In this document: one piece after another, positions 1,712 to 59,075 of the stretch | Layout: every line of letters starts with the position of its first letter | How positions within the stretch are numbered: position 1 is the stretch's first letter | Assembly (NCBI GenBank): GCA_902596065.1 | Contig: CACJSL010000001.1 | Coordinates: 48,782-112,781, forward strand | Reading direction: 5' to 3' | Length of the DNA: 64,000 bases | From: an uncultured Alphaproteobacteria bacterium | Lineage (GTDB): Bacteria > Pseudomonadota > Alphaproteobacteria > HIMB59 > GCA-002718135 | The notes under the pieces: generated by a model | Databases searched by the model: none | Seen by the model: the letters and a program-made list of their open reading frames with translations, nothing else | What the model was told of the DNA's origin: nothing | Translations under genes and position numbers: made by a program

Positions 1712-1742
1712 TTATCTTTAGAGTAAGTTTATAAATTTTATT

Positions 1743-2690: not shown

Positions 2691-2698
2691 AGATAGTT

Positions 2699-3831: not shown

Positions 3832-3849
3832 AAATAAAACTTGGTATTA

Positions 3850-39962: not shown

Positions 39963-40802
39963 CTATAACTGGAAATAAACAATACTAATTCCCATGACTA
40001 TTAATATGGAAGGGATAATTCTCTTTTTTGCCTCTTTTTCAGCTAAAAATAATAACCCAATAATTGTTGCAATAACTATACTTATTTCTCTAATACTAGA
40101 CACATAGGCAATTTCAATAAACTGCATTCCCCACACAACCAACGCATAACTACTCGTTGCAAAAAATCCAGCTGCAATTCCAGATTTAATGGTATATGAA
40201 TTCCTATCTCTAAGACCTTTTTTTGAAAAAATTGAAATGATTAAAAGAGGTACTCCGTTCAAGGCAAATAACCAGAATATATAAGTAAAACCATTTTCAG
40301 CTTTTCTTACTCCAATACCATCCACTAAAGTATATAGTGTGATTAATACTGCTGTAGATAATGCTAAAAAAAAAGCGGCTCTATTAAATTTTATTTTTGA
40401 TGAAAATGAAATCAAAAATAAACCTAGGCAAACTATTATTATGCCTCCAAAACCGTATGTATTAATAGAGGTTGATAAAAATATAATACTAAAGAGAGCA
40501 ATTAAAAGTGAAGAGCCTCCTCTAGCTATAGGATAAACAAATGATAAATCTCCATATTTATAAGAATAAATAACATTCAATCTATAGAGTACGTGAATGA
40601 TTACTGTTGCTAATAAAAAAAACCAAATTTCTAAAGTAGGAAAAGGAACATAAAAAGTGAGAGGAATAAAAATTATAATTTCCATCAAAGAAGTTATGCC
40701 CATTAAAGATAAAGGATTAGAACTTGATTTTATAATAGCACTCCATGTTGCATGAAATAGAGCTGATAAAAGAATTAATAAGAAAATAAAATTAATTGTC
40801 AA
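39963..40802 (-). CDS. DMT superfamily (EamA) transporter, paralogue of 53597-54472
   Basis: 10-TM profile. Shares YPIARG, YTLVDGIGVRKAENGFTYIFW and IAYVSSIREISI blocks with the other copy. Confidence 0.8.
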   Translation of the reverse strand: MTINFIFLLILLSALFHATWSAIIKSSSNPLSLMGITSLMEIIIFIPLTFYVPFPTLEIWFFLLATVIIHVLYRLNVIYSYKYGDLSFVYPIARGGSSLLIALFSIIFLSTSINTYGFGGIIIVCLGLFLISFSSKIKFNRAAFFLALSTAVLITLYTLVDGIGVRKAENGFTYIFWLFALNGVPLLIISIFSKKGLRDRNSYTIKSGIAAGFFATSSYALVVWGMQFIEIAYVSSIREISIVIATIIGLLFLAEKEAKKRIIPSILIVMGISIVYFQL

Positions 40803-40830: not shown

Positions 40831-41724
40831 TTACTTCATTCCAGTCAGAGTAATTCCTTCGATAAATCTTTTTTGTGCTATTATGAAAGCAACAATTAAG
40901 GGAACCGTGACAGTAACAATTGATGCCATCATTGGTCCAAATTCATCACTATCTATTCCTCCTCTAAATTCTCTAATTCCAAGAGGGGGAGTAAATAGAT
41001 CTCTATTTCCAGTTATAACCATTCTTGGCCAGAAATAATCATTCCAGTGTGCTACAACTGAGAATATTGCAAATGCAAGTAAAGCAGGTATTGCAGTTGG
41101 TAGCATGACTTTCCACACAATAGAATATTCTCCCATTCCATCCATTCTGGCGGCATCAATTAATTCATCTGGAACTGTCATAAAAAATTGTCGCATAAGA
41201 AAAATTCCAAATACAGATATTGTCCAGGGGAGTATTAAGGCGGAATAGGTATCAACTAGCCCGGCCTGGGCCAGCATTACATAAAGAGGAAGTGCAATGC
41301 CGTGCACTGGTATTAGAAGACAAAACAATACCATTGAAAATACAAATTCCCGTCCATAAAACCGGAGTTTTGCAAGCGCATAAGCACAAGGTAAGGCAAC
41401 AAGAACTTGAATTATAAAAATTGATAAAGTTACTATAACTCCATTCATTAAGTATCTAGGAATTGGAGCTTTCTCAAAAGCAAACCAGTAATTATAAATA
41501 TAAGGTTTTGTCGTACATGTTTCTTCGGAATAACCCGTTTTTACACAAACCGGAAATGTTTGAACTTCTTGTGCACCAATTAGCCCACCAGAAATCGATT
41601 GAATTTCTTGTTGAGATTTTAGTGACATTGAAACCATCATATAAAATGGCAGTAAAACAAGGATTGCACCAATTATTAAAATGCCGTGTTTCCAACTCTC
41701 ACCTATATACTGTTTAGCTTGCAT
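40831..41724 (-). CDS. CUT1-type ABC transporter permease (UgpE-like)
   Basis: EAA loop DELIDAARMDGMGEYSIVWKVMLP. Confidence 0.85.
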   Translation of the reverse strand: MQAKQYIGESWKHGILIIGAILVLLPFYMMVSMSLKSQQEIQSISGGLIGAQEVQTFPVCVKTGYSEETCTTKPYIYNYWFAFEKAPIPRYLMNGVIVTLSIFIIQVLVALPCAYALAKLRFYGREFVFSMVLFCLLIPVHGIALPLYVMLAQAGLVDTYSALILPWTISVFGIFLMRQFFMTVPDELIDAARMDGMGEYSIVWKVMLPTAIPALLAFAIFSVVAHWNDYFWPRMVITGNRDLFTPPLGIREFRGGIDSDEFGPMMASIVTVTVPLIVAFIIAQKRFIEGITLTGMK

Positions 41725-42680
41725 TAATAGTGAACCCTCTTCTCAATGATATACCTCTGAAAAAAAGTTAATATCAATATAAAGCCAATAAAAACAACAG
41801 TAATAGCTGCTCCAATACTCGTTAAGTTTTGTTGGATAGCTTTTTCAAAAATTGCATACATCATAACGTAGGTAGTTTTAGAGGGGCCGCCTTTAGTAAG
41901 TATTTCAATTGTATCAAAAACTTGAAATGTTCTGATTGTTGTAATTGTTACTACAAACAAAGTTGTGGGTCCAAGCATTGGCCAAGTTACAAGTTTAAAT
42001 TGCTCCCATGTTGATTTAGCGCCATCCATTTCTGCTGCTTGATATAGTTCACGAGGTATCCCTGTTAGGCCTGCTAAATACAAAACCATATTAAAACCAA
42101 ATGCTTGCCAAATTCCTATAAAACATATCGTCCAAATTGCTGTATTTTTTTGCTTTAGCCAATAAGGAAAATCCATATTATTTGCACATGCTACATGATA
42201 CCAGCTTTGTTGTGAATCTACCCATGGTAACCAATGAAAACCAAAAATAAACTCTCTTGCGCCTCCACAACCATTAGCTAAAAAACTATTCACTATACCG
42301 AGTGTTGGATGAAGAGTGAATTCCCATGCAATAGCCATAGCAAGAAGGGTCGCCATAACAGGAAGAAAGAAAATTGTTTTATAAATATCAGCTCCAAATC
42401 TAAGTGAATTTAAGAGCATTGCTGCACACAAACCAAGTACAACTGAAATAGGTACAACAACTATTACATAGGTTGCTGTGGCCCAAATCATTTTCACATA
42501 TGTTTTTCTTGAAAACATTTTTTCATAATTTTCAAGCCCTATCCATTCAAGAGATTTATTACCTAAATTATAATCAGTAAAAGAAATTCCCCCAGCAAGA
42601 AACAATGGAAAAATTAATATAATAATCATTAGTATTATTGCAGGTGCAATAAACCAAATATGTGCTTTGGAATTATGCAT
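41724..42680 (-). CDS. CUT1-type ABC transporter permease (UgpA-like)
   Basis: EAA loop ELYQAAEMDGAKSTWEQFKLVTWP. Confidence 0.85.
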   Translation of the reverse strand: MHNSKAHIWFIAPAIILMIIILIFPLFLAGGISFTDYNLGNKSLEWIGLENYEKMFSRKTYVKMIWATATYVIVVVPISVVLGLCAAMLLNSLRFGADIYKTIFFLPVMATLLAMAIAWEFTLHPTLGIVNSFLANGCGGAREFIFGFHWLPWVDSQQSWYHVACANNMDFPYWLKQKNTAIWTICFIGIWQAFGFNMVLYLAGLTGIPRELYQAAEMDGAKSTWEQFKLVTWPMLGPTTLFVVTITTIRTFQVFDTIEILTKGGPSKTTYVMMYAIFEKAIQQNLTSIGAAITVVFIGFILILTFFQRYIIEKRVHY

Positions 42681-43806
42681 TATTAAATTGAACCCTTTTA
42701 CCTTCTTGGTTAAACAATAGTGCTTTATTAGGAGCTCTTTTAATGTTTACTGTTGAACCATTAGAAATTTCATGTGTTAATTGAGGTATGCCTCTAACAA
42801 TAATTCTATTCATCCCATCTTCCGTATTTACATGAAAAAAAATATCTGATCCTAAATTTTCTCTGTAAGAAACTTTTGCACTAAAAGTATCTTCATCACT
42901 TTGATTGGAAATTTCTAAATGTTCAGGTCTAATACCAATATTTAACTCTAGATTTGTTTCTGAACTTTTTCTTTTTAAGTTTAGATTTAGTAAGTTTACA
43001 GTTCCGCTTGAATCTGATGAACCTTTAAAAATATTAATTTTAGGACTTCCAACGAATTGAGCCACACTTAGTGAGGAAGGATTATCATATACTTCTTGAG
43101 GAGTATCAAGTTGTAATAAATTTCCATCAATCATAACAGCCATACGAGAAGACATCGTTAATGCCTCCGCCTGATCATGAGTAACGTATACAAAAGTAGT
43201 TTTAAGTGAACTATGAAGTTCAGATAATTCGGAGCGCATATGAACTCTAAGCGCTGCATCTAAATTTGATAACGGTTCATCCATCAAAAAAGCAACAGGC
43301 TCTCTTACCATTGCCCTACCAAGAGCCACTCTTTGTCTTTGACCACCAGATAGTTGACCTGGTTTTCTATCAAGTAGTTCAGAGATTTTAAGTGTTTCAG
43401 AAGTTTTACTAACCAATTGATTTATAGATTCTGTTTTTTGTTTTTTATTCGGAGATAAATTTCCAATTAAAGGCAATCTTTCAAATGAATTGTAATCTCT
43501 AAGCCTTAAAGGAGTTTCTAAATTTCTTCTTACTGAAAGATGAGGATAGAGAGCGTAAGACTGAAACACCATTGCCAAGTCTCTTTCACTAGCTCTAATT
43601 TTATTTACGTTTTTATTATCAATTAAAACATCACCAGAAGTTTGTTGTTCAAGACCGGCTATAATTCGAAGTAAGGTAGATTTGCCACAACCAGATGGGC
43701 CAACTAATGTTAAAAATTCACCGTCTTTTATATCTACACTTAAATCTTTTAATACCTCTGTGGATCCAAATGATTTTGAAATATTTTTAAGTGATATTGT
43801 GCCCAC
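42673..43806 (-). CDS. ABC transporter ATP-binding protein (UgpC/MalK-like)
   Basis: GPSGCGKST, LSGGQRQRVALGRA, FLMDEP, C-terminal regulatory/TOBE domain. Confidence 0.9.
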   Translation of the reverse strand: MGTISLKNISKSFGSTEVLKDLSVDIKDGEFLTLVGPSGCGKSTLLRIIAGLEQQTSGDVLIDNKNVNKIRASERDLAMVFQSYALYPHLSVRRNLETPLRLRDYNSFERLPLIGNLSPNKKQKTESINQLVSKTSETLKISELLDRKPGQLSGGQRQRVALGRAMVREPVAFLMDEPLSNLDAALRVHMRSELSELHSSLKTTFVYVTHDQAEALTMSSRMAVMIDGNLLQLDTPQEVYDNPSSLSVAQFVGSPKINIFKGSSDSSGTVNLLNLNLKRKSSETNLELNIGIRPEHLEISNQSDEDTFSAKVSYRENLGSDIFFHVNTEDGMNRIIVRGIPQLTHEISNGSTVNIKRAPNKALLFNQEGKRVQFNNA

Positions 43807-43969
43807 AGAACCTCTCTTTTTTTTAATATATACTTTTTATAAAATTTTATGATTTTTTAAATGCATTTATTTCATTTTTATCTAAATTTTATGGACAAAT
43901 ATTCAAATTACTATTGAGTTTAAATAACATATAACTATAAATTCAATTTTTTAACTATATATAATCATT

Positions 43970-45211
43970 GTGACTGAAAATTTATTAATTAACAATAGAG
44001 AATATCCAAGTATATTTTCAAAGACAGCTATAGTTATTTGTCTTGATGGAAGCCAAAAAGAATATCTTGAAGAGGCATCAAAATCAAATCTGACACCTAA
44101 TCTTGACTCATTAATTGCAAGTGGTCAAAATTTATTAGTTCACAGTGCTATACCTAGCTTCACAAATCCAAATAATATTTCAATTGTGACAGGGCAGCCT
44201 AGTTCTGTTCACGGAATATGTGGTAACTTTTTTTACACTCCTGAAACGGGTGAAGAAGTAATGATGAATGATCCAAAATATATGCGTGCTCCAACAATTT
44301 TTGAAAAATTTTATAATTCTGGCTCAAAAATCGCTCTTGTTACTGCAAAAGATAAACTTAGAACCCTTTTGGGAAATGGTTTAAGTTTTGATAATAATCG
44401 AGCAATATGTTTTTCTGCAGAAAAATCTGATCAGGCAACAAAAGAACTTAATGGTATAGAAAATGTTAATGACTGGTTAGGTATGCCGGTGCCAGAAGTG
44501 TACTCCGAAGGTCTTTCTGAGTTTGTCATGGCCGCTGGAGTAAAACTACTAAAGGAATTTAAACCAGACATTATGTATTTATCTACGACTGACTATATTC
44601 AACACAAGTATGCACCTGGAAATGAAATAGCAAATAAGTTCTATGCAATGTTTGATAAATATATTGGCCTTTTAAATAAAGAAGACGTATCAATGATAGT
44701 AACAGCTGATCATGGAATGAAATCTAAATCAAAAGAAGACGGTTCACCTAACGCGATATTTTTACAAGATTATCTTGATAAAAAATTTGAACCGAACTTA
44801 ACAAAAGTCATCTTACCAATCACAGATCCGTATGTAGTTCATCATGGATCATTAGGTTCATTTGCTACAATTTATCTTGAAGATAAAACTAAAGTCAACG
44901 ATGTTATTGAATCAATTAAAGCAATTAAAGATATAGAAGTAGTCTTAACTAAAGACGAAGGTTGCTCAACATATAATCTTCCTCCAGATAGAATGGGAGA
45001 TATAATATGCATGTCTTCTGAATTTATGACAATTGGATCCTCTTTAGATAAACATAATCTTTCTGGATTAAATGAGCCTTTGCGTTCCCATGGTGGTTTA
45101 CATGAGCGAGAAGTACCTTTTATTTCAAATTTAAAAATACAAAATTTAAATAATGAAAAACAGTTATATAATTATGATGCATTCTATTATGCAATCAATG
45201 GAGCTTTATGA
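43970..45211 (+). CDS. phnA: Phosphonoacetate hydrolase (alkaline phosphatase superfamily)
   Basis: [35 protein letters not shown] (Thr nucleophile region), [44 protein letters not shown]. These closely match what I recall of Pseudomonas fluorescens PhnA. GTG start. Confidence 0.9.
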
Positions 45212-46650
45212 TGGAAAAGAAAATTATTAATGAAGCTATGCGCATTGCTGGCAAAAAAGTAAATTTTGAAAAAACAATTGATGTTGAATATCCATTTACA
45301 GGAGAAGTAATTGGTACAGTTCCTGCAGGAAATGCTGAGCATGCAAAACAAGCTCTTGAAATTGCTGCAAACTATCAACCTAAGTTGACACGATATGAAA
45401 GACAAAAAATACTTCAAACCGCAGCTGAGGTACTTGTAAAAAGAAAAGAAGAGATTTCTGACATCATTACCTTAGAACTTGGAATTTCAAAACAAGACTC
45501 ATTGTATGAAGTAGGCAGAGCATTTGATGTTTTTTCTTTAACCGCACAACTTTGTATTCATGATGACGGAGAAATTTTTTCTTGTGATTTAACTCCACAC
45601 GGAAAAGCGAGAAAAATATTTACAATAAGAGAACCATTAACAGCAATTTCGGCAATTACACCATTTAATCACCCTTTAAATATGGTGGCACATAAAATTG
45701 CACCTTCAATTGCAACGAATAATTGTACTGTTTGTAAGCAGACTGAGTTAACTCCATTAACAGCAATGGTTCTTGCTGATGTTTTGTATGAAGCTGGTTT
45801 GCCGCCAGAAATGTTTTCTGTTGTTACAGGATGGCCGCAAGATATCGGCTCTGAAATGATAAAGAATCCAAATATTGATCTTATTACTTTTACTGGAAGT
45901 GTTGGTGTTGGAAAACTAATTGCTGAACAAGCAGGATACAAAAGAACTGTCCTTGAACTTGGTGGAAATGATCCTTTAATAGTTTTAAATGATTTAGATC
46001 CAGATGATTTAAAGAAAGCAGTTGAATTAGCAGTTACTGGAGCAACAAAAAATTCAGGACAACGATGTACAGCTGTTAAAAGAATACTTTTGCAAGAAAA
46101 AATTGCTGATCAGTTTGTTGAAATGGCTTTGGAAAGAGCAAAAAAAATTAAATTTGGTGATCCAATGAGTATGGAAACTGACTTAGGCACTGTTGTTAAT
46201 GCTCAAGCAGCGGAATTATTTGATAAAAGAGTTTCAATGGCAGAGGCAGATGGTGCAAAAATCTTATATCACCCTGGAAGAAAAGGTGCGTTATTGCCTC
46301 CTATAGTAATTGATAATGTTGATCCAAAAAGTGAACTTGTTCTTGAAGAAACATTTGGCCCAGTTATCCCTATTATTAGGGTTCCCAATGATGATGAATC
46401 GGTAATCAAGATTTCAAACTCAACTGCTTTTGGATTATCTTCAGGTGTATGCACCAATAATTTTATGAGAGCTAAAAAATATATTCAAGGTCTTAATGTT
46501 GGAACTGTAAATATCTGGGAAGTACCTGGTTACAGAATTGAAATGTCCCCTTTTGGAGGAATTAAAGATTCTGGCTTAGGCTACAAAGAAGGCGTAATAG
46601 AAGCGATGAAGAGCTTTACTAATGTAAAAACATTCTCACTTCCTTGGTAG
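45208..46650 (+). CDS. phnY: Phosphonoacetaldehyde dehydrogenase (ALDH superfamily)
   Basis: ELGGNDP catalytic Glu, GQRCTAVKR catalytic Cys; ATGA overlap with phnA. Confidence 0.8.
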
Positions 46651-46819
46651 TTTCCTAGAAAAGAAGAGTATTTACTATTAAATAATAATAAATACATATA
46701 AAAAATATAATCAAATTTTACTTTCAAAATGACTTTACTGTTTGTATCCTTTTTAAGACTATTATATCATTAATTAGTTAAACGAAGTTTTAAGGTTTAA
46801 TTATACAGTGGAGGATTAA

Positions 46820-48073
46820 ATGAGAAAATTAATTACAGGATTAGCAGCCGTATTAGCTTTTGGTTTCTATGGTTCTGTTAATTCAGCGAAGTCTATAGAA
46901 ATAGAAGTAGCTTATCCTTATTCAGGTTTATTTGATGTTACCTATCAAGCTATTATGCCTGAGTTTGAAAAAGCTCATCCAGATATTCAAGTAAAATTTA
47001 GAGCAACTTATGAAAACTATGAAGATGCTACTGCTACAATTTTAAGAGAAGCAACTTCTGGTAATCTACCAGATGTTACAATGCAGGGTCTTAACAGACA
47101 AGCTCCTCTAGTAGACAAAGGTATTGCAAAATCTTTAGAGCCATTTATTGCAAAAGAAGCTGATTTTGAAAAAGATGGTTATCATGCTGCAATGTTAAGT
47201 CTTTCAACATTTGGAGGAGAGGTTTATGGTTTGCCATTCTCTGTATCAACTCCTGTTGGATATTATAACATGGATTTATTAGCTGAAGCTGGCATAGACA
47301 GCATCCCAACTAACTGGGATGAAGTTATTGATGCTTGTGGAAAATTAGAGGCAGCTGGAAAAGGTACTTTATATTTTGGTTGGAACATTACAGGTAACTG
47401 GTTCCACCAAGCATTAATGCATACTCAAAATGTAAAAATTGTTGAAGATGGAAAAGTAAACTTAGGTGGAGACGCTGGTTTAGCAACATTACAACAAATG
47501 CACGATATTATGAGTGGATGTAACATGCCTAACTATTCAATTGCTGATGGTCAAGCTGCATTTAATGCAGGCACGATCGGTATGATGTTCTGGTCAACTT
47601 CAAGCTTAGGTTCAGTAAATGCTGCAAAAGCAGATTTCGTACTTAAGACAGCTCCATTCCCTGGAATGGCAGGTGTTAATAATGGAACCCCAGCAAGATT
47701 ACCAGCAGGTGGAAATGCAGCAATGTTAACTTCTACTTCTGATGATCCAGCAAGAGTAGACGCAGCATGGACATTCTTGAAGTTCATTACTTCTGGTATT
47801 GGAGCAGCATTAGTTGCTGAGACTACTGGTTATGTTCCACCAAACAAAGCAGCTAACGATTTATTAGGTGATTTCTATAGTGCAAATCCAAATAAACTTA
47901 CTGCGGTAGAACAGCTTCCACTCTTAGCAGACTGGTTTGCATATCCTGGTGAAAACGGACTAGCAATCACTCAAGTAATTTATGATTACACTGAAGAAAT
48001 TGCCACAGGAAGTGCTGATGATATGGCAGATCTTCAAGAAGAAATGATGGAAGAAATCAACGATCTTTTATAA
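46820..48073 (+). CDS. ABC transporter substrate-binding protein, family 1 (UgpB-like)
   Basis: Signal peptide, family 1 SBP architecture, strong SD GGAGGA. Likely partner of the permeases at 40831-43806. Confidence 0.85.
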   Translation: MRKLITGLAAVLAFGFYGSVNSAKSIEIEVAYPYSGLFDVTYQAIMPEFEKAHPDIQVKFRATYENYEDATATILREATSGNLPDVTMQGLNRQAPLVDKGIAKSLEPFIAKEADFEKDGYHAAMLSLSTFGGEVYGLPFSVSTPVGYYNMDLLAEAGIDSIPTNWDEVIDACGKLEAAGKGTLYFGWNITGNWFHQALMHTQNVKIVEDGKVNLGGDAGLATLQQMHDIMSGCNMPNYSIADGQAAFNAGTIGMMFWSTSSLGSVNAAKADFVLKTAPFPGMAGVNNGTPARLPAGGNAAMLTSTSDDPARVDAAWTFLKFITSGIGAALVAETTGYVPPNKAANDLLGDFYSANPNKLTAVEQLPLLADWFAYPGENGLAITQVIYDYTEEIATGSADDMADLQEEMMEEINDLL

Positions 48074-48103
48074 TAAAGAATACTTTATTATTAACTTTTT
48101 ATT

Positions 48104-48135
48104 ACAGCGGCTTTATAAAAGCCGCTGTTTTATTT
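48104..48135 (+). terminator. Rho-independent terminator
   Basis: ACAGCGGCTTT-ATA-AAAGCCGCTGT 11-bp stem followed by TTTATTT. Confidence 0.8.
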
Positions 48136-48157
48136 CAAATAAAAGGGAGAATAAATA

Positions 48158-49237
48158 ATGCCTCTAACTACAACTACAATAGGTGCTTATCCAAAACCTA
48201 AACAAACTCCAATTCAAGATTGGTTTTTAGGCACTAAATCTGAAGAAGAAAGAAAAGCTTCAAAAGGATTATTATCAAACTGGTCACCCGGTGCATATGA
48301 AAAAGCATTAGAGTCTGCTGGAGAAGAAGCGGAGAAATTATTTTTAGAAGCAATTAAAGAAGTTATTACTGATCAAGTAAATTCAGGCATTGATGTTCCA
48401 ACTGATGGAGAAGTACGAAGAGAAAGTTATGTTTTATATCAATGTCGTTTTTTAAATGGTGTAAGCTTTAAGGAAGTAACACATAGGTCAGTTAGACAAG
48501 GCGCGTTTGAAGCAGATCTTCCAACAATAGTAGCGCCTATTTCAAGTAAAGAAATTCGCTTGCATTTAGATTGGAAAAGCGCGCAACAATTTACAAAAAA
48601 TCCTGTAAAAATTACTCTACCAGGACCTATGACAATTACAGATTCAATTGCTAATAACTATTATGATGACATGAAAAAACTAGGTTTTGATCTAGCACTT
48701 GCTTTAAACAAAGAAGTGAAAGCGCTTGTAGATGCTGGGTGTAAATACATTCAAATTGATGAACCTGTATTTGCAAGAAAACCTGAAGAAGCAAATTCTT
48801 ATGGTATGGAAAATTTAGAAAGAATGATGCACGGGATTCCAAAAGAGGTACAAAGAGTGTGCCATATTTGTTGCGGCTATCCAAACTCTCTTGACTCCGA
48901 GGGTTACAAAAAAGCAGACTTAGATGCTTATGATAGGATTGCTACTTTAGTAGATGATTCTACGATTGATGAAGTGTCATTAGAAGACTCACATAGACAC
49001 AATGATTTAAATCTTTTAGAAAAATTTACTAAAACAAAAGTTATTTTTGGATTTATTGATATTGCCAAAAGCAGAATGGAGTCAGTAGAAGAAGTAAGAA
49101 GTCGTATGAAAGACTCTTTAGAACATATTGACGAACATAGATTGATAGCTGCTCCAGATTGTGGTTTAGGTTTCTTTACAAGAGAACAAGCTATTGAAAA
49201 AATGTCAATATTATCTAAGGCTGCAAAATCAATTTAG
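48158..49237 (+). CDS. Single-domain cobalamin-independent methionine synthase (MetE C-terminal)-like Zn enzyme
   Basis: TDGEVRRE, IQIDEP, H236-I-C238, E276 (SLEDSHR), C335 (APDCGLGF); SD AGGGAGA. Confidence 0.8.
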   Translation: MPLTTTTIGAYPKPKQTPIQDWFLGTKSEEERKASKGLLSNWSPGAYEKALESAGEEAEKLFLEAIKEVITDQVNSGIDVPTDGEVRRESYVLYQCRFLNGVSFKEVTHRSVRQGAFEADLPTIVAPISSKEIRLHLDWKSAQQFTKNPVKITLPGPMTITDSIANNYYDDMKKLGFDLALALNKEVKALVDAGCKYIQIDEPVFARKPEEANSYGMENLERMMHGIPKEVQRVCHICCGYPNSLDSEGYKKADLDAYDRIATLVDDSTIDEVSLEDSHRHNDLNLLEKFTKTKVIFGFIDIAKSRMESVEEVRSRMKDSLEHIDEHRLIAAPDCGLGFFTREQAIEKMSILSKAAKSI

Positions 49238-49241
49238 TAGA

Positions 49242-50354
49242 ATGTGGAATTATTATAATCCTGTTGATGTTGTTTTTGGTGAAAATAAATTTTCAGAGAT
49301 ACACAAAATATTAGAAAATAAAAAATACGTCGTTGTTACCCATCCTGAAGAAATTTTTAAAAAATATACTGATCAATTAAATACATCATCTAATCCTCCC
49401 CTTATGGTTATGACAGAAGTACAACCTAATCCAGATTATTTAGATATTCTTACTCTATTAAAAAATTTTGCTTCTATAGCAAAAGAAGTTGATCATGTAG
49501 TTGCTATAGGAGGTGGATCTGTTACCGATACAGCAAAAGCTTTAGCAGCATTTAAAGGCAATGAAAATCTTTTAACAGATTTTGTTCGCAATAAAAAAAC
49601 TCCTTATGTGGATGACCCTATAAGTATTATTGCTGTGCCTACAACTTCTGGAACATCAAGTGAATTAACTTGTTGGGCTACGATTTGGGATAAAGAAAAA
49701 AATGGAAAGCTATCTTTAGCACACAAGAGCCTTTATCCTTTAAAGGCAATTATAGATCCAGTTATCATGTTAGATAAACCCAAAGGATTAACAATTTCAA
49801 CAGGTCTTGATGCCCTTTCTCATTCAATGGAAAGTATTTGGAATATTAATGCAAACCCAGTTTCTGCTATGCATGGAATAGTGGGCTCTCAATTAATTAT
49901 TGAAAACCTTCCTTTATTAGCTAATGATTTAAAAAACATCACATTAAGAAGTAATGTTGCTCGCGCTTGCGTTCATGCGGGTTTAGCTTTTTCTAATACT
50001 AAGACAGCCATTGCACATAATATTTCTTATCCCATTACTCTTAATTATGGTATTCAACATGGAATTGCGTGTTCTTTTAGCTTGCCTATGATTTTAAGAA
50101 GTATGCTTGATATTAATGATGAAGCTGAAAATCGTTTAAAAATGATTTTTAATGATGATTTAATTAGTTCAGCAACAAAACTTGAATCAATTTTACGACA
50201 ATTAAATATTCCTCTTAATCTTAATGAATTAAAAATCAATAAAGACGAGTGGAATAAAATTGTTGGTGATGCATTTATGGGCGAAAGAGGTAAAAATTTT
50301 TTAGGTAATAAAAATGCTTTTGATAAAGCAGTTGATGAATCAAATTTTTTTTAA
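49242..50354 (+). CDS. Group III iron-containing alcohol dehydrogenase (phosphonoacetaldehyde reductase-like)
   Basis: GGGSVTDTAKA, DALSHSMES, AHNISYP motifs. ATG at 49242 lies 5 nt after the upstream stop; the track start at 49194 is TTG inside the upstream gene. Confidence 0.82.
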   Translation: MWNYYNPVDVVFGENKFSEIHKILENKKYVVVTHPEEIFKKYTDQLNTSSNPPLMVMTEVQPNPDYLDILTLLKNFASIAKEVDHVVAIGGGSVTDTAKALAAFKGNENLLTDFVRNKKTPYVDDPISIIAVPTTSGTSSELTCWATIWDKEKNGKLSLAHKSLYPLKAIIDPVIMLDKPKGLTISTGLDALSHSMESIWNINANPVSAMHGIVGSQLIIENLPLLANDLKNITLRSNVARACVHAGLAFSNTKTAIAHNISYPITLNYGIQHGIACSFSLPMILRSMLDINDEAENRLKMIFNDDLISSATKLESILRQLNIPLNLNELKINKDEWNKIVGDAFMGERGKNFLGNKNAFDKAVDESNFF

Positions 50355-50355
50355 A

Positions 50356-51168
50356 TTAAAATTTTTTAGTTGTCTCAAACCAATTGATATTATCTTTTAA
50401 AAAATCTTCAGTATGGACTACTAGTGAGTTTTTATTAATTAATATTACATTATAATTTGGATCAGTATTGGCCGTTCCCAATCTATAGTTTTTTGAAAAA
50501 TTGGGCACCAATGGAGACCAAGTACTTCTCGGCGCACTAAAAGGTATGTTTAAATAATTTCCTGATACTGTAATATGCTGATGACCAAAAAAAATATGTT
50601 GAATAATTTTTTTAAATTTAATTAATATATCTTTAAACTCATCTCCTTGTTGTAAACCAATATAATCACTAGTGGGCTCTCCTAGGGGTAAAGGATTATG
50701 ATGCATAAAAAGATAAACTTGTTTATTATTATCTGAAGCATTTTCTAGAGTATTTATAAGCCAACTTTGTCTGTTGTTGCAAAAATGCCCTTGATGGGTA
50801 TTTGATAAATTTGTATCTAAAAAAATAAAACGTTTATCTTCAATGTCTTCAAAGTATTGAATAAAACCATTTTCATCTAAAGGTATTTTTGTAAATATTT
50901 GTTTAAACTGTTCTCTATCATCATGATTGCCCATAAGCAATTTTGGAAACAAATGTTTTGGTATTTTGGAATTTAATAATATTTCATTTAATTTATTATA
51001 AGATTCACTATCCCCGTCATGCGTTAAATCTCCTGATATAACAAATAGCTTTGAGTCTAAATGATTGTTGCAAATATGTTGAAGTGCTAGTGAAAATCTC
51101 TCTTTAGCATCATGTTCAAAAAGTTTATCTGGAGAAATATGAGGATCTGATAAGTGGATTATTTTCAT
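50356..51168 (-). CDS. Class III metallophosphodiesterase (GpdQ/CpdA family)
   Basis: HLSDPH, SGDLTHDG, GNHDD, FMHHNPLPLG, FGHQH. These five metallophosphoesterase blocks are spaced as in GpdQ. Confidence 0.85.
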   Translation of the reverse strand: MKIIHLSDPHISPDKLFEHDAKERFSLALQHICNNHLDSKLFVISGDLTHDGDSESYNKLNEILLNSKIPKHLFPKLLMGNHDDREQFKQIFTKIPLDENGFIQYFEDIEDKRFIFLDTNLSNTHQGHFCNNRQSWLINTLENASDNNKQVYLFMHHNPLPLGEPTSDYIGLQQGDEFKDILIKFKKIIQHIFFGHQHITVSGNYLNIPFSAPRSTWSPLVPNFSKNYRLGTANTDPNYNVILINKNSLVVHTEDFLKDNINWFETTKKF

Positions 51169-51194: not shown

Positions 51195-51824
51195 TTAAAG
51201 TTTTGTTTTAAAAAAAAGATACTTATTAAATTCTTTTTTTAAATCGATGCTAACACGGGCATGTACTTTCCCTTGTTTGCCCATAAAAGAACTTTTCTTT
51301 TGAACAGGGAAAACACCCTCATGCCAAATATTGGGATGAATATATAAACCTTTTGATCCATCAAAATAAAATGCCTTAAAATCTTCTGCTTGAATATCAT
51401 CGCCAGGTAACGCAAGAGGTGAAATAAATGGACCTCTTTCAGAGGGAAAAAATAACTGCCCTCCATCTGGGTGGTAATTAACATGCCATATATAAATCTC
51501 TTCTGGCTCACTATATTCTGTATTGTTTTCAATATTTTCTGGAGGGGCAGAATAGCCTAAAATATATTTTCCATCTATTTCATACTCACTATTATGTTGC
51601 ACAGCATTATTTTGCCCATAAAGAGTTGAGCCTTCCCACCAAGTATCAAACGCACCTTTGGTATAGCCCGCTTCATTACCTGTTCCTTCATCAATTTCTC
51701 GCCAACCTTGTTTTGGCCAAGTTACAATTTCAACATCACTGTTTTCAAATGAGTCTATTAAATAACCATATCCTTTAAGAGTTTCATTTGTAGCTTTGAC
51801 TAAGGGGATTTCAATGGCCTGCAT
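51195..51824 (-). CDS. Ureidoglycolate lyase (AllA) family-like cupin, extended form
   Basis: N-terminal LKGYGYLID, central YHPDGGQLFFP and C-terminal GLYIHPNIWHEGVFP align with blocks I recall from AllA (FSAYGDVIE, RHPLGTQAFIP, VNYHRNVWHHPLF). Confidence 0.55.
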   Translation of the reverse strand: MQAIEIPLVKATNETLKGYGYLIDSFENSDVEIVTWPKQGWREIDEGTGNEAGYTKGAFDTWWEGSTLYGQNNAVQHNSEYEIDGKYILGYSAPPENIENNTEYSEPEEIYIWHVNYHPDGGQLFFPSERGPFISPLALPGDDIQAEDFKAFYFDGSKGLYIHPNIWHEGVFPVQKKSSFMGKQGKVHARVSIDLKKEFNKYLFFKTKL

Positions 51825-51835
51825 AAATATTACTT

Positions 51836-52936
51836 TTAATTAATTTTAATTTGTAATTCATTTACAACTTCTTTTATGGCCTTAATGGTATCATGCATAT
51901 CATTGTCATCTAAATTTCCAATACATCCAATACGAAAAGTATCAGCAACAGTAAGCTTGCCTGGATAAATCAAAAAATCTTTATTACTCAAAGCATCATA
52001 AAATTCTTCAAAATTAAAATTTGAATTTTGAGGCTGCATAAATGTTATAATTATTGGCGCTTGTAATTCATTTGACAGTAATTGTTTAAAACCTATTTCT
52101 TTCATACCATCACAAATTATTTTGCAATTATTTGAATACCTTTTATGCCTTCCTTCAACCCCCCCTTCTTTTGAATGTTCATTTATAGCTTGTTGAAAGG
52201 CAGCTAAAACATGTGTGGGAGGAGTAAAACGCCACTGTTTATTTTTTTCCATCGCCTGCCACTGGTCATATAGATCTAAACTTAAAGAATGTGCATTTCC
52301 TTTTGCTTTTTCGATAATATTATTTTTAACTAAAATAAAGCCTACTCCTGGAACTCCTTCTAAACATTTATTGGAAGAAGCAGCAACAGCATCAAATGCA
52401 ATTGTTTTACTACTAAGAGGAAGAGCGCCAAAAGCACTCATAGCATCAATAAATAATGATAAATTTTTTTTTGCTACTAAGTCAGATATTTTTTGAATAG
52501 GATTTAATATTCCTGAGGTTGTTTCGCAGTAAACAGCAAACACATGAGTTAAATCAGTATTTGAATCTATGATGTTTTCAATTTCATCTAAATCATGTTG
52601 TTCATGTTCCGCAACTTCATAAGCAATACATTCTCTACCAACATAGTCACACATTTTTTTCATACGGTGACCATATGCTCCATTAATTAATATTAATATT
52701 TTTGCATCTTTAGATGTGAGAGAGCCAACCATTGATTCTACTGCAAATGTTCCGCTACCTTGCATTGGAACACATTGGTAATTATTTTCACCATCAATAA
52801 GTTTTACAAGAGACTCACGAATAGAATGGTTCAGATCAATAAATTTTTGATCTCGCGAACCCCAATCATGAAGCATGGCTTCTTTGGTTGTCATGGAGGT
52901 AGTAAGTGGTCCAGGTGTAAGAAGTTTTTTATCCAT
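51836..52936 (-). CDS. phnW: 2-aminoethylphosphonate:pyruvate aminotransferase
   Basis: LLTPGPLTTS N-terminus, class V aminotransferase fold, PLP Lys in SSNKCLEGVPGVGF. Confidence 0.9.
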   Translation of the reverse strand: MDKKLLTPGPLTTSMTTKEAMLHDWGSRDQKFIDLNHSIRESLVKLIDGENNYQCVPMQGSGTFAVESMVGSLTSKDAKILILINGAYGHRMKKMCDYVGRECIAYEVAEHEQHDLDEIENIIDSNTDLTHVFAVYCETTSGILNPIQKISDLVAKKNLSLFIDAMSAFGALPLSSKTIAFDAVAASSNKCLEGVPGVGFILVKNNIIEKAKGNAHSLSLDLYDQWQAMEKNKQWRFTPPTHVLAAFQQAINEHSKEGGVEGRHKRYSNNCKIICDGMKEIGFKQLLSNELQAPIIITFMQPQNSNFNFEEFYDALSNKDFLIYPGKLTVADTFRIGCIGNLDDNDMHDTIKAIKEVVNELQIKIN

Positions 52937-53034: not shown

Positions 53035-53607
53035 ATGGAAAATATTGTAGATCAACTTCTAAATCTTTTAGTTACAAAGGGGGGAGATATACAATATGGA
53101 AATGAAGATGTTACTCAATTAGAGCATGCCTTACAGTGCGCAGAATTAGCTGAACAACACAATTTACCAGGCCCAACAATAGCAGCTGCTTTATTACATG
53201 ATATTGGCCATCTTTTATATGAAGACAAGGATCCAATTCATGAAGGGAAAGATGGACGTCATGAAAACTTAGGAGCTGATTATTTATCGCAATACTTTGA
53301 TACTGATGTGACACAGCCTATTCGAGCTCATGTAGATTCCAAAAGATATTTAGCAACAGTTGAAGAAGGTTATTATGATCTTCTCTCAGAGGCCTCCAAA
53401 CTTTCACTCGCTGTTCAGGGCGGTCCATTTACCAAAGAGGAGGCAAAAAAATTTATAGATAAACCATTTATGAAGGAAGCTGTAGAAATGAGGCGTTTCG
53501 ATGATATGGCAAAAATTTTAAATAAAAAAACCCCTGATATAAATTATTTTAGACCATATGTAGAAAAAGCACAAAATTCATTTAATTTAAAAAACATTAA
53601 GAATTAA
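53035..53607 (+). CDS. phnZ: PhnZ-type HD-domain di-iron oxygenase (phosphonate-degradation-associated HD protein)
   Basis: LEHALQC, AALLHDIGH, RHENLGADYL, RAHVDSKRYL, RRFDDMAK give the H/HD/H/H/D ligand pattern of the PhnZ/MIOX-like family. Confidence 0.75.
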   Translation: MENIVDQLLNLLVTKGGDIQYGNEDVTQLEHALQCAELAEQHNLPGPTIAAALLHDIGHLLYEDKDPIHEGKDGRHENLGADYLSQYFDTDVTQPIRAHVDSKRYLATVEEGYYDLLSEASKLSLAVQGGPFTKEEAKKFIDKPFMKEAVEMRRFDDMAKILNKKTPDINYFRPYVEKAQNSFNLKNIKN

Positions 53608-54472
53608 ATATAAAATATACTCCAATAAAAAATATTACAGCTGATAAAATTCTTATAAATTTTATTTTTTCACCTAAAAATATAAAGCTGATTAATGAAG
53701 TCATAATGATACTAGACTCTCTTATAGAAGATACATAAGCAATTGGTTGATGATTCATGCTCCATACAATTATTCCGTAAGCAATAAATGACATAAAAGA
53801 TGCAACTGTGATTAATACCAGTTGTTTTGTTCTTATTTTAAATAGGTCATTTTTTTGTGTTAAATAAACATAACTAATAGTTATCCATCCACCTAAAAAG
53901 AAATTCCATACAATAAAAGTAAATTCATTTTTAGCACTTCTTACACCTGCACCATCAGAAAAAGTATATAAAGCTATAAGTATAGAAACAAATATAGAAA
54001 TAATTAATAATTTTAAATTTAATTTATTTTTATAATTTTCTTTGGCTAATAATAATAAGCCAAACACGACAATGCTTATACCAACGTAACCTTTAAAAGT
54101 TATATAATCGTTTAAAAATGTAACTGAGAAGATTGTAACGAAAACAGGAGCAAGTCCTCTAAATACAGGATAGGTTATTGTTATATCGCCACGATTATAA
54201 ATATTTCCTAGAATTAGAAAGTATGAACTATGAAGAAGCAGTGATAAAATCAAAAAAATCCATGTTATTCCTTCTGGCAGAGGAACAAAAAATAATACAG
54301 GAAAAAAAATTATGCTTTGAATTAACATTTGTAAAGCTATTGCAACTTGAGAATTGTTAATTGATTTAATAATAATATTCCAGCTTGCATGAAGAAATGC
54401 AGCAAAAAGTATTAGTAAAAATATTGAAATATTACTCATAGGCAAAAAAAATGGGGATGAAATCATCCCCAT
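53597..54472 (-). CDS. DMT superfamily (EamA) transporter, paralogue of 39963-40802
   Basis: 10-TM profile and shared sequence blocks with the other copy. The true start may be the internal MSNISIF. Confidence 0.78.
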   Translation of the reverse strand: MGMISSPFFLPMSNISIFLLILFAAFLHASWNIIIKSINNSQVAIALQMLIQSIIFFPVLFFVPLPEGITWIFLILSLLLHSSYFLILGNIYNRGDITITYPVFRGLAPVFVTIFSVTFLNDYITFKGYVGISIVVFGLLLLAKENYKNKLNLKLLIISIFVSILIALYTFSDGAGVRSAKNEFTFIVWNFFLGGWITISYVYLTQKNDLFKIRTKQLVLITVASFMSFIAYGIIVWSMNHQPIAYVSSIRESSIIMTSLISFIFLGEKIKFIRILSAVIFFIGVYFIFNS

Positions 54473-54493
54473 AATTTATAATAAATTTGTTAT

Positions 54494-55537
54494 TTAGTTT
54501 TTTGGCTCAGTTTTGCCATCATATCTTTTTTTCCATTCAGCAACTATACGATCTTTGTTTGCCGCTGCCCAAACAAAATCATTATCAATTAATTTTGCTT
54601 GCACTTCGTCATAAAAATCAGGAAGTTCTGGATCTTTAGTTACTTTAGAAGGATCAGCAATAATTGATTGTCTTTGCCCGAATAATTTCATTCCTTCTCC
54701 CAAAGTCCAATCCATTAATGTTTTTGCATCTTCAAGATTATCTGTTCCTTCCATTATAGCCACTACTTGCATTTCCCAACCAATTCCTTCTTCAGGAATA
54801 ATCATATCAATTGGAGCACCAGCTTTAATAACTTTAATTGCTCTACCAGGCCATGAGATACCAATTGCAAATTCACCAGCCCCTGCTTGCTTACAAGGTT
54901 TAGAACCAGAGTGAGTATACACACCTATATTTTCATGTAGTGCATCCATATACTCCCACGCTTTATCTTCACCCCATATTTGCATCCAACTAGATGCATC
55001 CAAGAAACCAGTTCCAGAGGAAGCTGGATTTGGCATAGAAATATGACCTTTATAAATTGGATCAGTTAACTCTGCCCAAGTTGTTGGTTTAGGTAAACCA
55101 AGTTTTTCTGCCTCAATGCGGTTCCAGCAAATACAACCTGCCCAGCCATAATTTCCAACCCAAGTTACAGGTGCAGATTTATCAACATATCGTTGATCAA
55201 TCGCATCCATACCTTTTGGAGTATATTCAACAAACATACCTTCTGCTTCCATATTTAAAGCAACAGTTGCAGCCATCTCAAATAAGAAATCAGCTTGTGG
55301 GTTATCTTTTTCTGCCATCATTTTTGCTGCCATTGTTCCAGTTGATTCACGAACAACGTTAACTTTTATATCGGGATGATCTTTTTGAAATTCATCCATG
55401 TAATATTTAAGATTATCTGCATCAGTACTAGAATATACTAAAAGCTCACCAGCATTAGCTAGATAGCTAAATGTAGATAAAGATATAAAAATTAAAACAG
55501 CACTTAGTGTGTTTAAAATTTTTTTTATTAAAAACAT
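54494..55537 (-). CDS. Putative 2-aminoethylphosphonate ABC transporter substrate-binding protein (PhnS2/AepX-like)
   Basis: Signal peptide, Fe3+/2-AEP-type SBP fold; divergent from the ATPase/permease genes. Confidence 0.78.
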   Translation of the reverse strand: MFLIKKILNTLSAVLIFISLSTFSYLANAGELLVYSSTDADNLKYYMDEFQKDHPDIKVNVVRESTGTMAAKMMAEKDNPQADFLFEMAATVALNMEAEGMFVEYTPKGMDAIDQRYVDKSAPVTWVGNYGWAGCICWNRIEAEKLGLPKPTTWAELTDPIYKGHISMPNPASSGTGFLDASSWMQIWGEDKAWEYMDALHENIGVYTHSGSKPCKQAGAGEFAIGISWPGRAIKVIKAGAPIDMIIPEEGIGWEMQVVAIMEGTDNLEDAKTLMDWTLGEGMKLFGQRQSIIADPSKVTKDPELPDFYDEVQAKLIDNDFVWAAANKDRIVAEWKKRYDGKTEPKN

Positions 55538-55736
55538 AAAATTACCTCCAAATTTAAATGTTATCTTTTATTTAAAAAATGTGATTAAATTTAAACATAT
55601 ATATGACCTATTTGTTAACAATTAATTACAAATTTTGATATTATTTTGAGTATAAGAAGATATAGTATTTTTCAATTTGGCCAAAAACTAATATATTTTA
55701 CTAATACATTTGATTAACTAAAATTTATAAAATTTT

Positions 55737-56816: not shown

Positions 56817-56819
56817 ATT

Positions 56820-58547: not shown

Positions 58548-59075
58548 ATGGCAATGCAATTAATTGATTATGTTCAACCAAAAGATGTAAAAGGAAAAAT
58601 ATTTTTAACCTGTTTTCCAGGAAGAAATGGAGAAAAAATTTCTTTTGAGGAAAATATTTTTTTAAAAGAACTAAATAATTTTTCCTCTCTAAATTCTAAT
58701 ACGGTCGTAACTTTGGTAGAGGATAATGAAATTGAAAAACTTTGTGATAAAAAGTTTTTTGTTCGAAAAATTTATTCTCATAATTTTAAATGGATACATA
58801 TGCCAATTGTAGATTTAAAATCCCCTGATCATAAATTTATGGATAAATGGCAAACAACAAAAGTATTATTAAAAAATGATTTAATAGAAGGAAAGAATAT
58901 TATTTTGCATTGTATGGGAGGCAAAGGACGTACAGGTACAATTGCCGCTATTCTCTTAATTGAGTTTGGGGAAAAACATGAAGAGGCTATAAAAATTGTT
59001 AGAGAAAAAAGAAAAGGCGCTATTGAAACAAAAGAACAAGAAGATTTTATTTTTTCTTATAGGCCTGTAGCTTAG
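58548..59075 (+). CDS. Cys-based phosphatase, dual-specificity/PTP-like (CX5R)
   Basis: HCMGGKGRTGT P-loop (HCX5R[ST]); 24 nt after the permease stop. Confidence 0.75.
   Translation: MAMQLIDYVQPKDVKGKIFLTCFPGRNGEKISFEENIFLKELNNFSSLNSNTVVTLVEDNEIEKLCDKKFFVRKIYSHNFKWIHMPIVDLKSPDHKFMDKWQTTKVLLKNDLIEGKNIILHCMGGKGRTGTIAAILLIEFGEKHEEAIKIVREKRKGAIETKEQEDFIFSYRPVA

Follow-up and report, generated by a model that had tools for sequence, protein, structure and literature searches.

A Ugp-like ABC importer arranged around phnA and phnY in SAR11 bacteria: a probable route of phosphonate uptake

Known phosphonate importers and the SAR11 module

The described phosphonate importers are PhnCDE, PhnSTUV/PhnS2T2U2, AepXVW, AepSTU, AepP and a Na+ symporter, and none of them belongs to the CUT1 subfamily of ATP-binding cassette (ABC) transporters (PMC8316502, PMC10574752). 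The known ABC importers among them are encoded together with phnW/X or phnW/A/Y, and their substrate-binding proteins (SBPs) belong to PF12974 (PhnD) or to the PF13343/PotD-like group (PhnS, AepX, AepS). Here we analyse a 64-kb stretch of contig CACJSL010000001.1 from an uncultured alphaproteobacterium (the window, to which all positions refer unless a locus is named), in which a CUT1 importer resembling UgpBAEC is encoded on either side of phnA and phnY. It has the same role within its gene cluster as the known phosphonate ABC importers, but its SBP (PF01547/PF13416) is of an unrelated fold family and its permeases and ATPase subfamily also differ, a contrast made visible by the window's own PhnS2T2U2 system. 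Very probably, we propose, it represents a type of phosphonate uptake that has so far gone unrecognised. Its ligand is in all likelihood a phosphonate, free or esterified, and on balance we favour small C2 phosphonates, chiefly 2-hydroxyethylphosphonate (HEP), which would feed the enzymes PhpC, PhnY and PhnA encoded alongside.

Open reading frames (ORFs) of the window were called and scanned with Pfam and NCBIfam profiles, and the scores were compared with the family cutoffs. The minus strand carries the genes for two CUT1 permeases, one UgpE/MalG-like (40831-41724; PF00528, BPD_transp_1) and one UgpA/MalF-like (41724-42680; PF00528), and for an ABC ATPase of the MalK/UgpC type with a C-terminal TOBE/OB domain (42673-43806; PF00005 and PF08402, with a weak match to PF17912 as well). 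An AT-rich intergenic region of 163 nt (43807-43969), presumed to be a bidirectional promoter region, lies between the ATPase gene and the divergent phnA (43970-45211, plus strand), which encodes phosphonoacetate hydrolase, the enzyme of C-P bond cleavage (TIGR02335, 467 bits; cutoff 407.6). The phnA gene overlaps by 4 nt with phnY (45208-46650, plus strand) for phosphonoacetaldehyde dehydrogenase (TIGR03250, 788 bits; cutoff 635.7). The gene for the periplasmic SBP, a family 1 protein of the UgpB branch with a signal peptide, follows on the plus strand (46820-48073). It has its own Shine-Dalgarno sequence, GGAGG, 6 nt 5′ of the start codon, and is followed by an intrinsic terminator or attenuator hairpin (48104-48128, plus strand) with an 11-bp stem containing 6 G-C pairs and a subsequent T-run.

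These parts had been recognised by the original prediction, which described permeases and ATPase (40831-43806) diverging from phnA-phnY and the only family 1 SBP placed after phnY with its own Shine-Dalgarno sequence and terminator. The gene calls and family scans agree with it, and a BLASTP search with E. coli UgpB/A/E/C against window ORFs of at least 200 aa finds a single family 1 SBP and a single CUT1 permease pair in the 64 kb. The unit had been taken to end with the SBP gene at 48073, which is too early: it runs to 50354. It includes the gene for a MesD-like 'core MetE' homologue of 359 aa (48158-49237, plus strand; PF01717) with the fold of Zn-dependent homocysteine alkyl- or methyltransferases, hereafter the MetE-like protein, and phpC (49242-50354, plus strand) for a PhpC-type iron alcohol dehydrogenase (Fe-ADH) predicted to interconvert HEP and phosphonoacetaldehyde. 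The listed phpC ORF begins at a TTG at position 49194, but the likely start is the ATG at 49242, 4 nt past the stop codon of the MetE-like gene.

A scan of one genome per GTDB species yielded 510 relatives of the SBP. The best 80 (L006-L085) are all SAR11 and represent species with SBPs 77-99% identical to that of the window. The window itself is DNA of a SAR11/Pelagibacterales genome. Many GORG single-cell genomes, under the labels Pelagibacteraceae or "uncultured Alphaproteobacteria", encode proteins that share 94-99% identity with its SBP. A synteny map drawn by tblastn finds UgpE-UgpA-UgpC on the minus strand and PhnA-PhnY-SBP-MetE-like-PhpC on the plus strand in every sufficiently long locus of these 80. 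The region 40831-50354 is one conserved eight-gene SAR11 module, with phnA and phnY inserted between the ATPase and SBP genes of the transporter in every SAR11 genome. The Shine-Dalgarno sequence of the SBP gene is invariant, and the terminator hairpin is kept in three SAR11 clades with compensatory substitutions in the stem. In one clade (L064-L082, SBPs about 85% identical) the eight genes stand alone among housekeeping genes (thioredoxin, tsaE, metK, ahcY and a peptidase gene), and for this reason we consider them the conserved core. The divergent spacer contains blocks conserved within SAR11 clades, none of them shared across clades. A sigma-70 promoter scan gave fewer matches than shuffled sequence and is uninformative because the DNA is AT-rich (about 30% GC). 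To look for riboswitches (SAM or other) ahead of the SBP gene or the MetE-like gene, 38000-60500 was scanned with Rfam; the only match, sub-threshold, was to the L20 leader, and we take it to be due to chance.

Outside SAR11 we sampled 80 metagenomic loci (37-66% GC) chosen around one non-SAR11 member, and 15 further contexts from identical-protein look-ups and plasmid records. In the non-SAR11 operons the genes for ATPase, two permeases and SBP are contiguous (C-A-E-SBP), and the window subunits are 51-63% (ATPase), 59-69% (UgpA-like), 63-76% (UgpE-like) and 59-69% (SBP) identical to theirs. Since all subunits have orthologues in these contiguous operons, the sequences show that the leftward ATPase and permeases and the rightward SBP form one cognate CUT1 importer. 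The hallmarks of the subfamily, a family 1 SBP, a MalF/MalG-type permease pair and a MalK-type ATPase with a TOBE/OB domain, are all present.

Besides the CUT1 system, the original prediction named a dedicated 2-aminoethylphosphonate transporter in the window, and PhnS2, PhnT2 and PhnU2 (54494-58523, with PhnS2 at 54494-55537), a genuine second system, indeed all score above their TIGRFAM cutoffs. The other SAR11 loci extending that far lack the block EamA2-PhnS2-PhnT2-PhnU2 (53597-58523), and in them genes for a dual-specificity phosphatase and a SulP-like protein directly follow the PhnZ-like gene; in the window the block has the look of an insertion specific to this strain. Because most SAR11 islands lack PhnS2T2U2, the CUT1 system is their sole ABC importer.

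The binding protein and its relatives

The closest described relatives of the SBP, both in sequence and in structure, are the UgpB proteins of UgpBAEC systems from the same CUT1 subfamily (E. coli; Phaeobacter sp. MED193, 9LFF; M. tuberculosis, 6R1B). The window protein matches PF01547 (123.5 bits) and PF13416 (122 bits) and no other Pfam family. An AlphaFold model (AF2; pLDDT 79, pTM 0.80) superimposes on CUT1 SBPs with template-modelling (TM) scores of 0.75-0.85, and Foldseek ranks the predicted structure closest to M. tuberculosis UgpB with glycerophosphocholine (TM 0.81/0.85), E. coli and Phaeobacter UgpB being close behind. A clade profile searched against the PDB finds Phaeobacter UgpB 9LFF first, then E. 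coli UgpB and then a Thermus dinucleotide-binding protein, all of which bind phosphoryl ligands. The corresponding search with the single sequence was dominated by mutants of the Thermus protein and was not decisive, the profile search being more informative.

In the UgpB branch, two Tyr and two Ser (Tyr64, Ser143, Ser266 and Tyr342 of MED193 UgpB) coordinate the phosphate, while the glycerol moiety is held by Glu88, Arg393 and Gly303 together with a Trp188/Trp191 clamp (PMC12718374). Two independent alignments of the window SBP, by hhalign with E. coli UgpB and by HMMER with 9LFF, agree that the phosphate tetrad is conserved as Y67, S143, S259 and Y338, as are Gly303 (G298) and Trp188 (W188). 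By contrast, Glu88 is replaced by Gly90 within an invariant QGLNRQ motif, Arg393 by Thr384, and Trp191 falls into a deletion. The putative pocket positions are invariant in 118 distinct SBPs of the marine clade, whatever their gene context. Judged by these alignments, the protein seems to bind phosphoryl groups but to have given up the recognition of glycerol, and its ligand should be some small organophosphorus anion different from glycerol phosphate. As it belongs to the phosphoryl-binding UgpB branch yet lacks the glycerol-binding residues, it would not be an ordinary binder of glycerol 3-phosphate or sugars, and the same loss disfavours glycero-conjugates as cargo.

One could still suppose an ordinary UgpBAEC importer of sn-glycerol-3-phosphate or glycerophosphodiesters, or a CUT1 sugar importer, which merely happens to sit beside the phn genes. 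UgpB/A/E/C are indeed the top-scoring NCBIfam models, and public annotations name homologues 'multiple sugar transport system substrate-binding protein'. However, all four subunits score below the Ugp equivalog cutoffs: 63 against 411 bits for UgpB, 102 against 335 for UgpA (NF007852), 128 against 297 for UgpE (NF008210) and 392 against 432 for UgpC (NF008653). Identity to UgpB is only 20-25%, the three glycerol-contacting residues Glu88, Arg393 and Trp191 are not conserved, the window system has no UgpQ, and no UgpQ/GlpQ or sugar-catabolic gene adjoins the transporter in about 180 loci. Unlike in UgpBAEC, phnA-phnY separate the genes into two groups and the enzymes encoded alongside belong to phosphonate metabolism, in a synteny conserved in 80 SAR11 species-level genomes. 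The system belongs to CUT1 and the UgpB branch by its fold and phosphate tetrad and departs from Ugp proper in the scores, the glycerol binders and the lack of UgpQ. We regard the ordinary Ugp or sugar importer as largely refuted and give it hardly any probability.

The original prediction had the importer funnel its ligand into PhnY and PhnA, and it would have been weakened if orthologues elsewhere were unlinked to phosphonate genes. A recognised phosphonate gene occurs in 23 of the 80 metagenomic loci (16 of the 37 that are at least 10 kb long), in at least five different arrangements and on contigs that range from 37 to 70% GC. These neighbourhoods support the proposed supply of PhnY and PhnA by the importer without proving it. 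In L112, a single strand carries phnA (494 bits), the gene for a PbfG-type Zn-dependent alcohol dehydrogenase (Zn-ADH; TIGR03366, 275 bits), an aldehyde dehydrogenase (ALDH) gene and C-A-E-SBP. A PbfG-like enzyme and an ALDH precede C-A-E-SBP-MetE-like in L130, L131, L135 and L137; phnY (813 bits), phnA (523 bits) and phnW (545 bits) diverge from C-A-E-SBP-MetE-like in L116 and L117; and SBP-MetE-like is followed by PhnDCEE, PhnA (513 bits) and PhnY (784 bits) in L120, L144 and L179. In the most abundant roseobacter type (L102-L104, L154, L164-L176), whose SBP occurs on more than 250 contigs, the SBP gene is followed by genes for a GabT-like aminotransferase, a Zn-ADH, a hydroxypyruvate-isomerase-like protein and PbfA (663 bits; cutoff 525), and in L174 convergent PhnA/PhnY come after this PbfA-type set. 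Three unrelated alcohol dehydrogenase families adjoin the same transporter. In every lineage, PhnA beside the transporter is accompanied by an aldehyde dehydrogenase and by an enzyme generating phosphonoacetaldehyde, be it PhpC, a PbfG-like enzyme, PhnW or PbfA. A LysR-type regulator is found beside non-SAR11 orthologues, as AepR is beside AepXVW.

Some assignments in these clusters did not hold. PbfG-type enzymes were found in L098, L087 and L112, but the Zn-ADHs of L088 and L003 are class-III-ADH-like and not of the PbfG type. The L088 HAD protein is a HAD-IIA phosphatase and not PhnX, identification of the roseobacter Zn-ADH as the PbfF racemase was not possible since PbfF belongs to PF02826, and a URO-D-like gene product of 442 aa near roseobacter clusters is not homologous to the MetE-like protein. 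The roseobacter set itself, a class-III aminotransferase of the GabT-like kind, a class-III-like Zn-ADH, a TIM barrel resembling hydroxypyruvate isomerase and PbfA, is a combination that we did not find in the phosphonate papers examined; it may degrade hydroxy-2-aminoethylphosphonate (hydroxy-AEP) or dihydroxyethylphosphonate. In L088/L089 (11341-17506) the SBP gene is followed by genes for a CaiB-type CoA-transferase, an MBL-fold hydrolase (RNase Z/PhnP-like), an ALDH, a Zn-ADH, a Na/Pi-cotransporter fragment and a HAD-IIA phosphatase.

A proposed pathway from HEP to phosphate and the rival cargoes

On the basis of experimental enzymology, clusters that join a PhpC- or PbfG-type dehydrogenase to phnY-phnA (or phnX) and lack phnW/pbfD have been interpreted as dedicated to HEP catabolism (PMC13576164). 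The minimal SAR11 clade has the same signature: PhpC, PhnY and PhnA are present and there is no PhnW within 10 kb. The non-SAR11 relatives use PbfG-type Zn-ADHs in place of PhpC, as with PhnA, PbfG-type ADH and ALDH in L112. The SAR11 module differs from the clusters of that study (Piazza et al. 2026) in that the CUT1 importer and the MetE-like protein are constant members and the SAR11 PhpC is divergent. Transporters were not analysed by Piazza et al., and SAR11 is not listed in their main text (PMC13576164). Our full-text literature searches returned no paper that ties UgpB/CUT1 proteins or methionine-synthase homologues to phosphonate clusters, in agreement with the earlier statement that no CUT1 phosphonate carrier has been established.

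In the mechanism that we propose, HEP would be imported by the CUT1 system and oxidised by PhpC to phosphonoacetaldehyde, which PhnY would convert to phosphonoacetate; hydrolysis of the C-P bond by PhnA would then release acetate and phosphate. The oxidative direction is assigned to PhpC because, in the minimal module, it is the only encoded source of the aldehyde needed by PhnY and PhnA, and HEP or a related C2 phosphonate is the best candidate ligand because phpC belongs to the module. The SBP gene would have been relocated into the rightward catabolic operon phnA-phnY-SBP-metE-like-phpC, with ATPase and permeases transcribed leftwards, and its own ribosome-binding site and attenuating terminator presumably permit an excess of the binding protein. 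Through PhnW and the PhnZ-like oxygenase of the larger island, 2-aminoethylphosphonate (AEP) and hydroxy-AEP could serve as further inputs. Phosphonoacetaldehyde is made from AEP by PhnW and perhaps by the GabT-like protein, and from hydroxy-AEP by PbfA, whereas the PhnZ-like oxygenase would cleave hydroxy-AEP directly. These enzymes flank the same transporter with its invariant pocket in SAR11 and roseobacters, and several C2 phosphonates may therefore be cargo, with 2-AEP, hydroxy-AEP or simple HEP mono-esters as possible additions to HEP. In a separate arrangement, a PhpC-type Fe-ADH (TIGR03405, 421 bits) adjoins PhnD-PhnC-PhnE (L097, 1372-3509), with a MetE-like homologue 5 kb away, so that HEP dehydrogenases can also pair with a classical phosphonate importer.

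The first ligand to have been suggested for this importer was phosphonoacetate itself, which PhnA would cleave directly. It is true that phnA opens the operon in which the SBP gene lies, and a small di- or trianion could fit the phosphoryl-binding pocket. PhnY and PhpC would then be superfluous, however, PhnA beside the transporter never comes without the aldehyde dehydrogenase and the phosphonoacetaldehyde-making enzyme, and many orthologous loci have no PhnA nearby; phosphonoacetate is a very improbable main cargo. Of the ligands first suggested, the phosphonate type of cargo has gained support, whereas phosphonoacetate and the glycero-conjugates are disfavoured.

Several observations weigh against import of free HEP or other C2 phosphonates. 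The score of PhpC on TIGR03405 (Phn_Fe-ADH), 377 bits, is below the trusted cutoff of 423.7, the next best family reaching 152 bits, and Lockwood et al. read phpC in catabolic operons as reductive (PMC9381506). The pocket residues come from an alignment at about 22-25% identity to UgpB and not from coordinates, and in the Foldseek comparison sugar binders score almost as high as the UgpB proteins, so that the fold alone does not discriminate the ligand class. The conserved MetE-like gene has no place in a simple HEP pathway. Finally, at least ten cassettes of regulator, ABC genes, SBP and phosphodiesterase have no phosphonate gene within 10 kb (L001/2, L005, L086, L090, L091/92, L184 and, at 30-45% SBP identity, those of Tistrella, Agrobacterium, Cupriavidus, Delftia and Sinorhizobium). 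They do not fit a free phosphonate, which needs no diesterase, and from sequence the ancestry of the SBP family looks phosphodiester-type.

This last point bears on a further explanation, in which the importer is of the GpdQ type, carries phosphodiesters and, in SAR11, does no more than sit with the phn genes in a phosphorus-scavenging island, without supplying them. Cassettes of the GpdQ/PdeA type, named after GpdQ of Enterobacter aerogenes (2ZO9/3D03), are typical of the wider SBP family (30-69% identity). They are compact, with a regulator gene next to C-A-E-SBP, a gene for a GpdQ-like class-III metallophosphodiesterase and in some cases one for a HAD phosphatase, and occur on Phaeobacter plasmids as well, the SBP of P. 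inhibens being 64% identical to that of the window; among relatives with 30-45% SBP identity (Rhizobiales, Tistrella, Cupriavidus, Delftia) they are the only arrangement seen. Several marine orthologues with an identical pocket also lie in phosphodiesterase cassettes, and PhoU/PHO4/Na-Pi genes are common neighbours of the transporter. The window has an adjoining GpdQ-like gene of its own, for a GpdQ/CpdA-class metallophosphoesterase (50356-51168, minus strand; PF00149), which is convergent with phpC and 2 bp beyond it. Its best PDB matches are GpdQ (2ZO9/2DXL/3D03; E 4e-16), followed by Rv0805, and it is 34-41% identical to the enzyme encoded after the SBP in roseobacter and rhizobial cassettes. 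In contrast to these cassettes, and to the many relatives in which the gene is within the transporter operon, the SAR11 phosphodiesterase gene is on the other strand, outside the eight genes, and the minimal clade lacks it, the MetE-like gene occupies the slot after the SBP gene, and the operon contains the genes for C-P cleavage. The gene after the SBP could be determined in 61 of the 80 non-SAR11 loci, the contigs of the other 19 being too short to tell. It encodes the GabT-like aminotransferase of the aminotransferase/ADH/PbfA set in 41, the MetE-like protein in 16, another protein in one and a phosphodiesterase in only three. The position of phnA and phnY between ATPase and SBP genes throughout SAR11, the repeated linkage to bona fide PhnA, PhnY, PhnW and PbfA in differing arrangements, and the missing glycerol-recognition residues of glycerophosphodiester binders also argue against a phosphodiester importer, which we consider unlikely.

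Our literature searches found nothing on the GpdQ operon. The Sinorhizobium homologues had been candidates for the ABC transporter that belongs to the phnWAY operon of S. meliloti and were rejected, being phosphodiesterase cassettes. Two plasmids, one of Cupriavidus (L095) and one IncP plasmid of Delftia (L101), carry DeoR-HAD-ABC-SBP-phosphodiesterase as cargo between IS1071/IS21 on conjugative plasmids, a setting typical of xenobiotic traits that may reflect the use of dialkyl phosphates. Seven SAR11 loci (L038, L039, L042, L043, L045, L047 and L084) contain a second, distant CUT1 set between the phosphodiesterase gene and the cupin gene, with an SBP 24-25% and permeases 29-37% identical to those of the window; this second set may be a true glycerophosphodiester system.

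The MetE-like partner, the wider island and implications

The MetE-like gene directly follows the SBP gene in all SAR11 loci as well as in the 16 non-SAR11 loci counted above. Its product consists of the catalytic domain of cobalamin-independent methionine synthase alone, and the closest solved relative is MesD (3RPD, E 1e-44). The Zn ligands (H236, C238, E276 and C335) and the Glu and Asp that bind the amino group of homocysteine (E85 and D201), shared with MesD, are invariant in 12 homologues, while the Ser position that binds the carboxylate is Ala or Ser. In MesD the methyl donor is unknown and MesX (DUF1852) is an obligate partner (Price et al. 2021, PMC7857596). Unlike MesD, the window protein is linked to an ABC importer and phosphonate genes, and a scan of the 29 ORFs from 34.7 to 60.1 kb gave no MesX, nor is there one among the called genes of L087 and L096-L099. 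A tblastn search against plasmids returned relatives of at most 33% identity (about 31-33%), annotated as methionine synthase (MesD-like), in an uninformative context. To our knowledge, SAR11 bacteria are thought to lack MetE-type methionine synthases; a MesD-like homologue with intact Zn and homocysteine sites is present in the window and in the 80 related SAR11 genomes. In one member of the minimal clade (L068, 13502-18341) the eight genes lie a few kb from metK and ahcY, genes of the methyl cycle, which deserves mention in view of the MetE-like gene and may be a coincidence.

The GpdQ-like and MetE-like genes share the same slot after the SBP gene and occur together in L108, L136 and SAR11. 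The SBPs linked to the MetE-like gene do not group together in a neighbour-joining tree but are dispersed among those with a linked phosphodiesterase, and these partner associations therefore arose more than once. Both contexts would be reconciled if the ligands were esterified or methylated phosphonates, such as methyl or other mono-esters of HEP, that are unmasked by GpdQ-like hydrolysis or by MetE-like methyl transfer to homocysteine. GpdQ hydrolyses phosphonate mono-esters, the ancestry of the family looks to be of the phosphodiester type, and the Zn- and homocysteine-binding residues of the MetE-like protein are kept. In the marine dissolved organic matter of high molecular weight, HEP and methylphosphonate occur as esters (PMC5649143). 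On the other hand, both a phosphodiesterase and a MetE-like gene are missing from L112, L106 and the 41 GabT-like/PbfA-type loci, and methyl transfer from the anion of a phosphonate mono-ester is chemically demanding. The only precedent that we know of is Ada acting on methyl phosphotriesters, and we know of no natural methyl ester of HEP in seawater. Masked phosphonates as the principal ligands are thus a distinctly doubtful alternative to free HEP and other C2 phosphonates, which we continue to prefer.

With free C2 phosphonates as cargo, the MetE-like or GpdQ-like enzyme might still have an accessory role, e.g. in stripping methyl or other ester substituents. A bolder and equally tentative proposal, for which we see a small chance, is that the MesD-like protein is a homocysteine methyltransferase using a methylated organophosphate or organophosphonate imported here, such as a HEP methyl ester or an N-methylated aminophosphonate. 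If so, the module would yield phosphate and methionine, and enzyme and importer would establish both a first CUT1-family phosphonate uptake system and a new reaction type in phosphonate catabolism. Genes for SAM-dependent methyltransferases flank the phnA-pbfG-aldh-transporter cluster of L112 (181-1020 and 10052-10678), and one follows the phosphodiesterase gene in L101 (9771-10499); after the MetE-like gene, they are another hint of methyl chemistry around the transporter family.

Beyond the eight genes, a frequent extension that most SAR11 versions possess and the minimal clade lacks comprises EamA, phosphodiesterase, cupin, PhnW and PhnZ-like genes. In the window, the gene for a phn_DUF6-like membrane protein of the EamA family (39963-40802, minus strand; PF00892; TIGR03340, 150 bits, cutoff 288) trails the permease genes. 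On the other side, beyond the phosphodiesterase gene, lie the genes for PhnW (51836-52936, minus strand; NF010006, 524 bits; TIGR02326, 475 bits) and for the PhnZ-like HD oxygenase (53035-53607, plus strand; TIGR03276, 197 bits, cutoff 214.6). Between the phosphodiesterase gene and phnW there is a gene for a ureidoglycolate-lyase-like cupin of 209 aa (51195-51824, minus strand; PF04115, 39 bits), which is kept in most SAR11 islands and is without a known phosphonate role. No PhnY*-type 2-oxoglutarate dioxygenase partner of the PhnZ-like protein is found nearby, and the oxygenase may have hydroxy-AEP from the environment, or some other 1-hydroxyphosphonate, as its substrate. The island is bordered by genes for a dual-specificity-phosphatase-like protein (PF22784) and a SulP/PitA-like permease (58548-60124), which are conserved alongside it in SAR11. 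At 1-4000 of the window the GC content falls to 22-25%, far below that of the remainder.

The system is of interest because its organisms are abundant, the marine pool of HEP is large and the MetE-like partner is still without an explanation. SAR11 is the most abundant bacterium of the ocean and HEP is a major marine phosphorus pool. Until 2026 the only fate of HEP known to us was cleavage by C-P lyase, which releases ethylene. SAR11 and the abundant pelagic roseobacters could mineralise HEP hydrolytically and, if HEP does enter by the Ugp-like importer, a large share of marine HEP turnover would lead to acetate and phosphate with no hydrocarbon gas. Its uptake would then depend on a transporter uncounted in current surveys, whose markers are phnD, phnS and aepX. 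The MetE-like partner is a recurrent phosphonate-cluster gene without an assigned role, and the SBP, with a putative pocket invariant across its marine clade, would be a well-defined target for ligand screening, biosensors and meta-omic markers. For the family as a whole, uptake of HEP by this importer would extend the ligand range of CUT1 transporters from sugars and glycerol phosphates to phosphonates.

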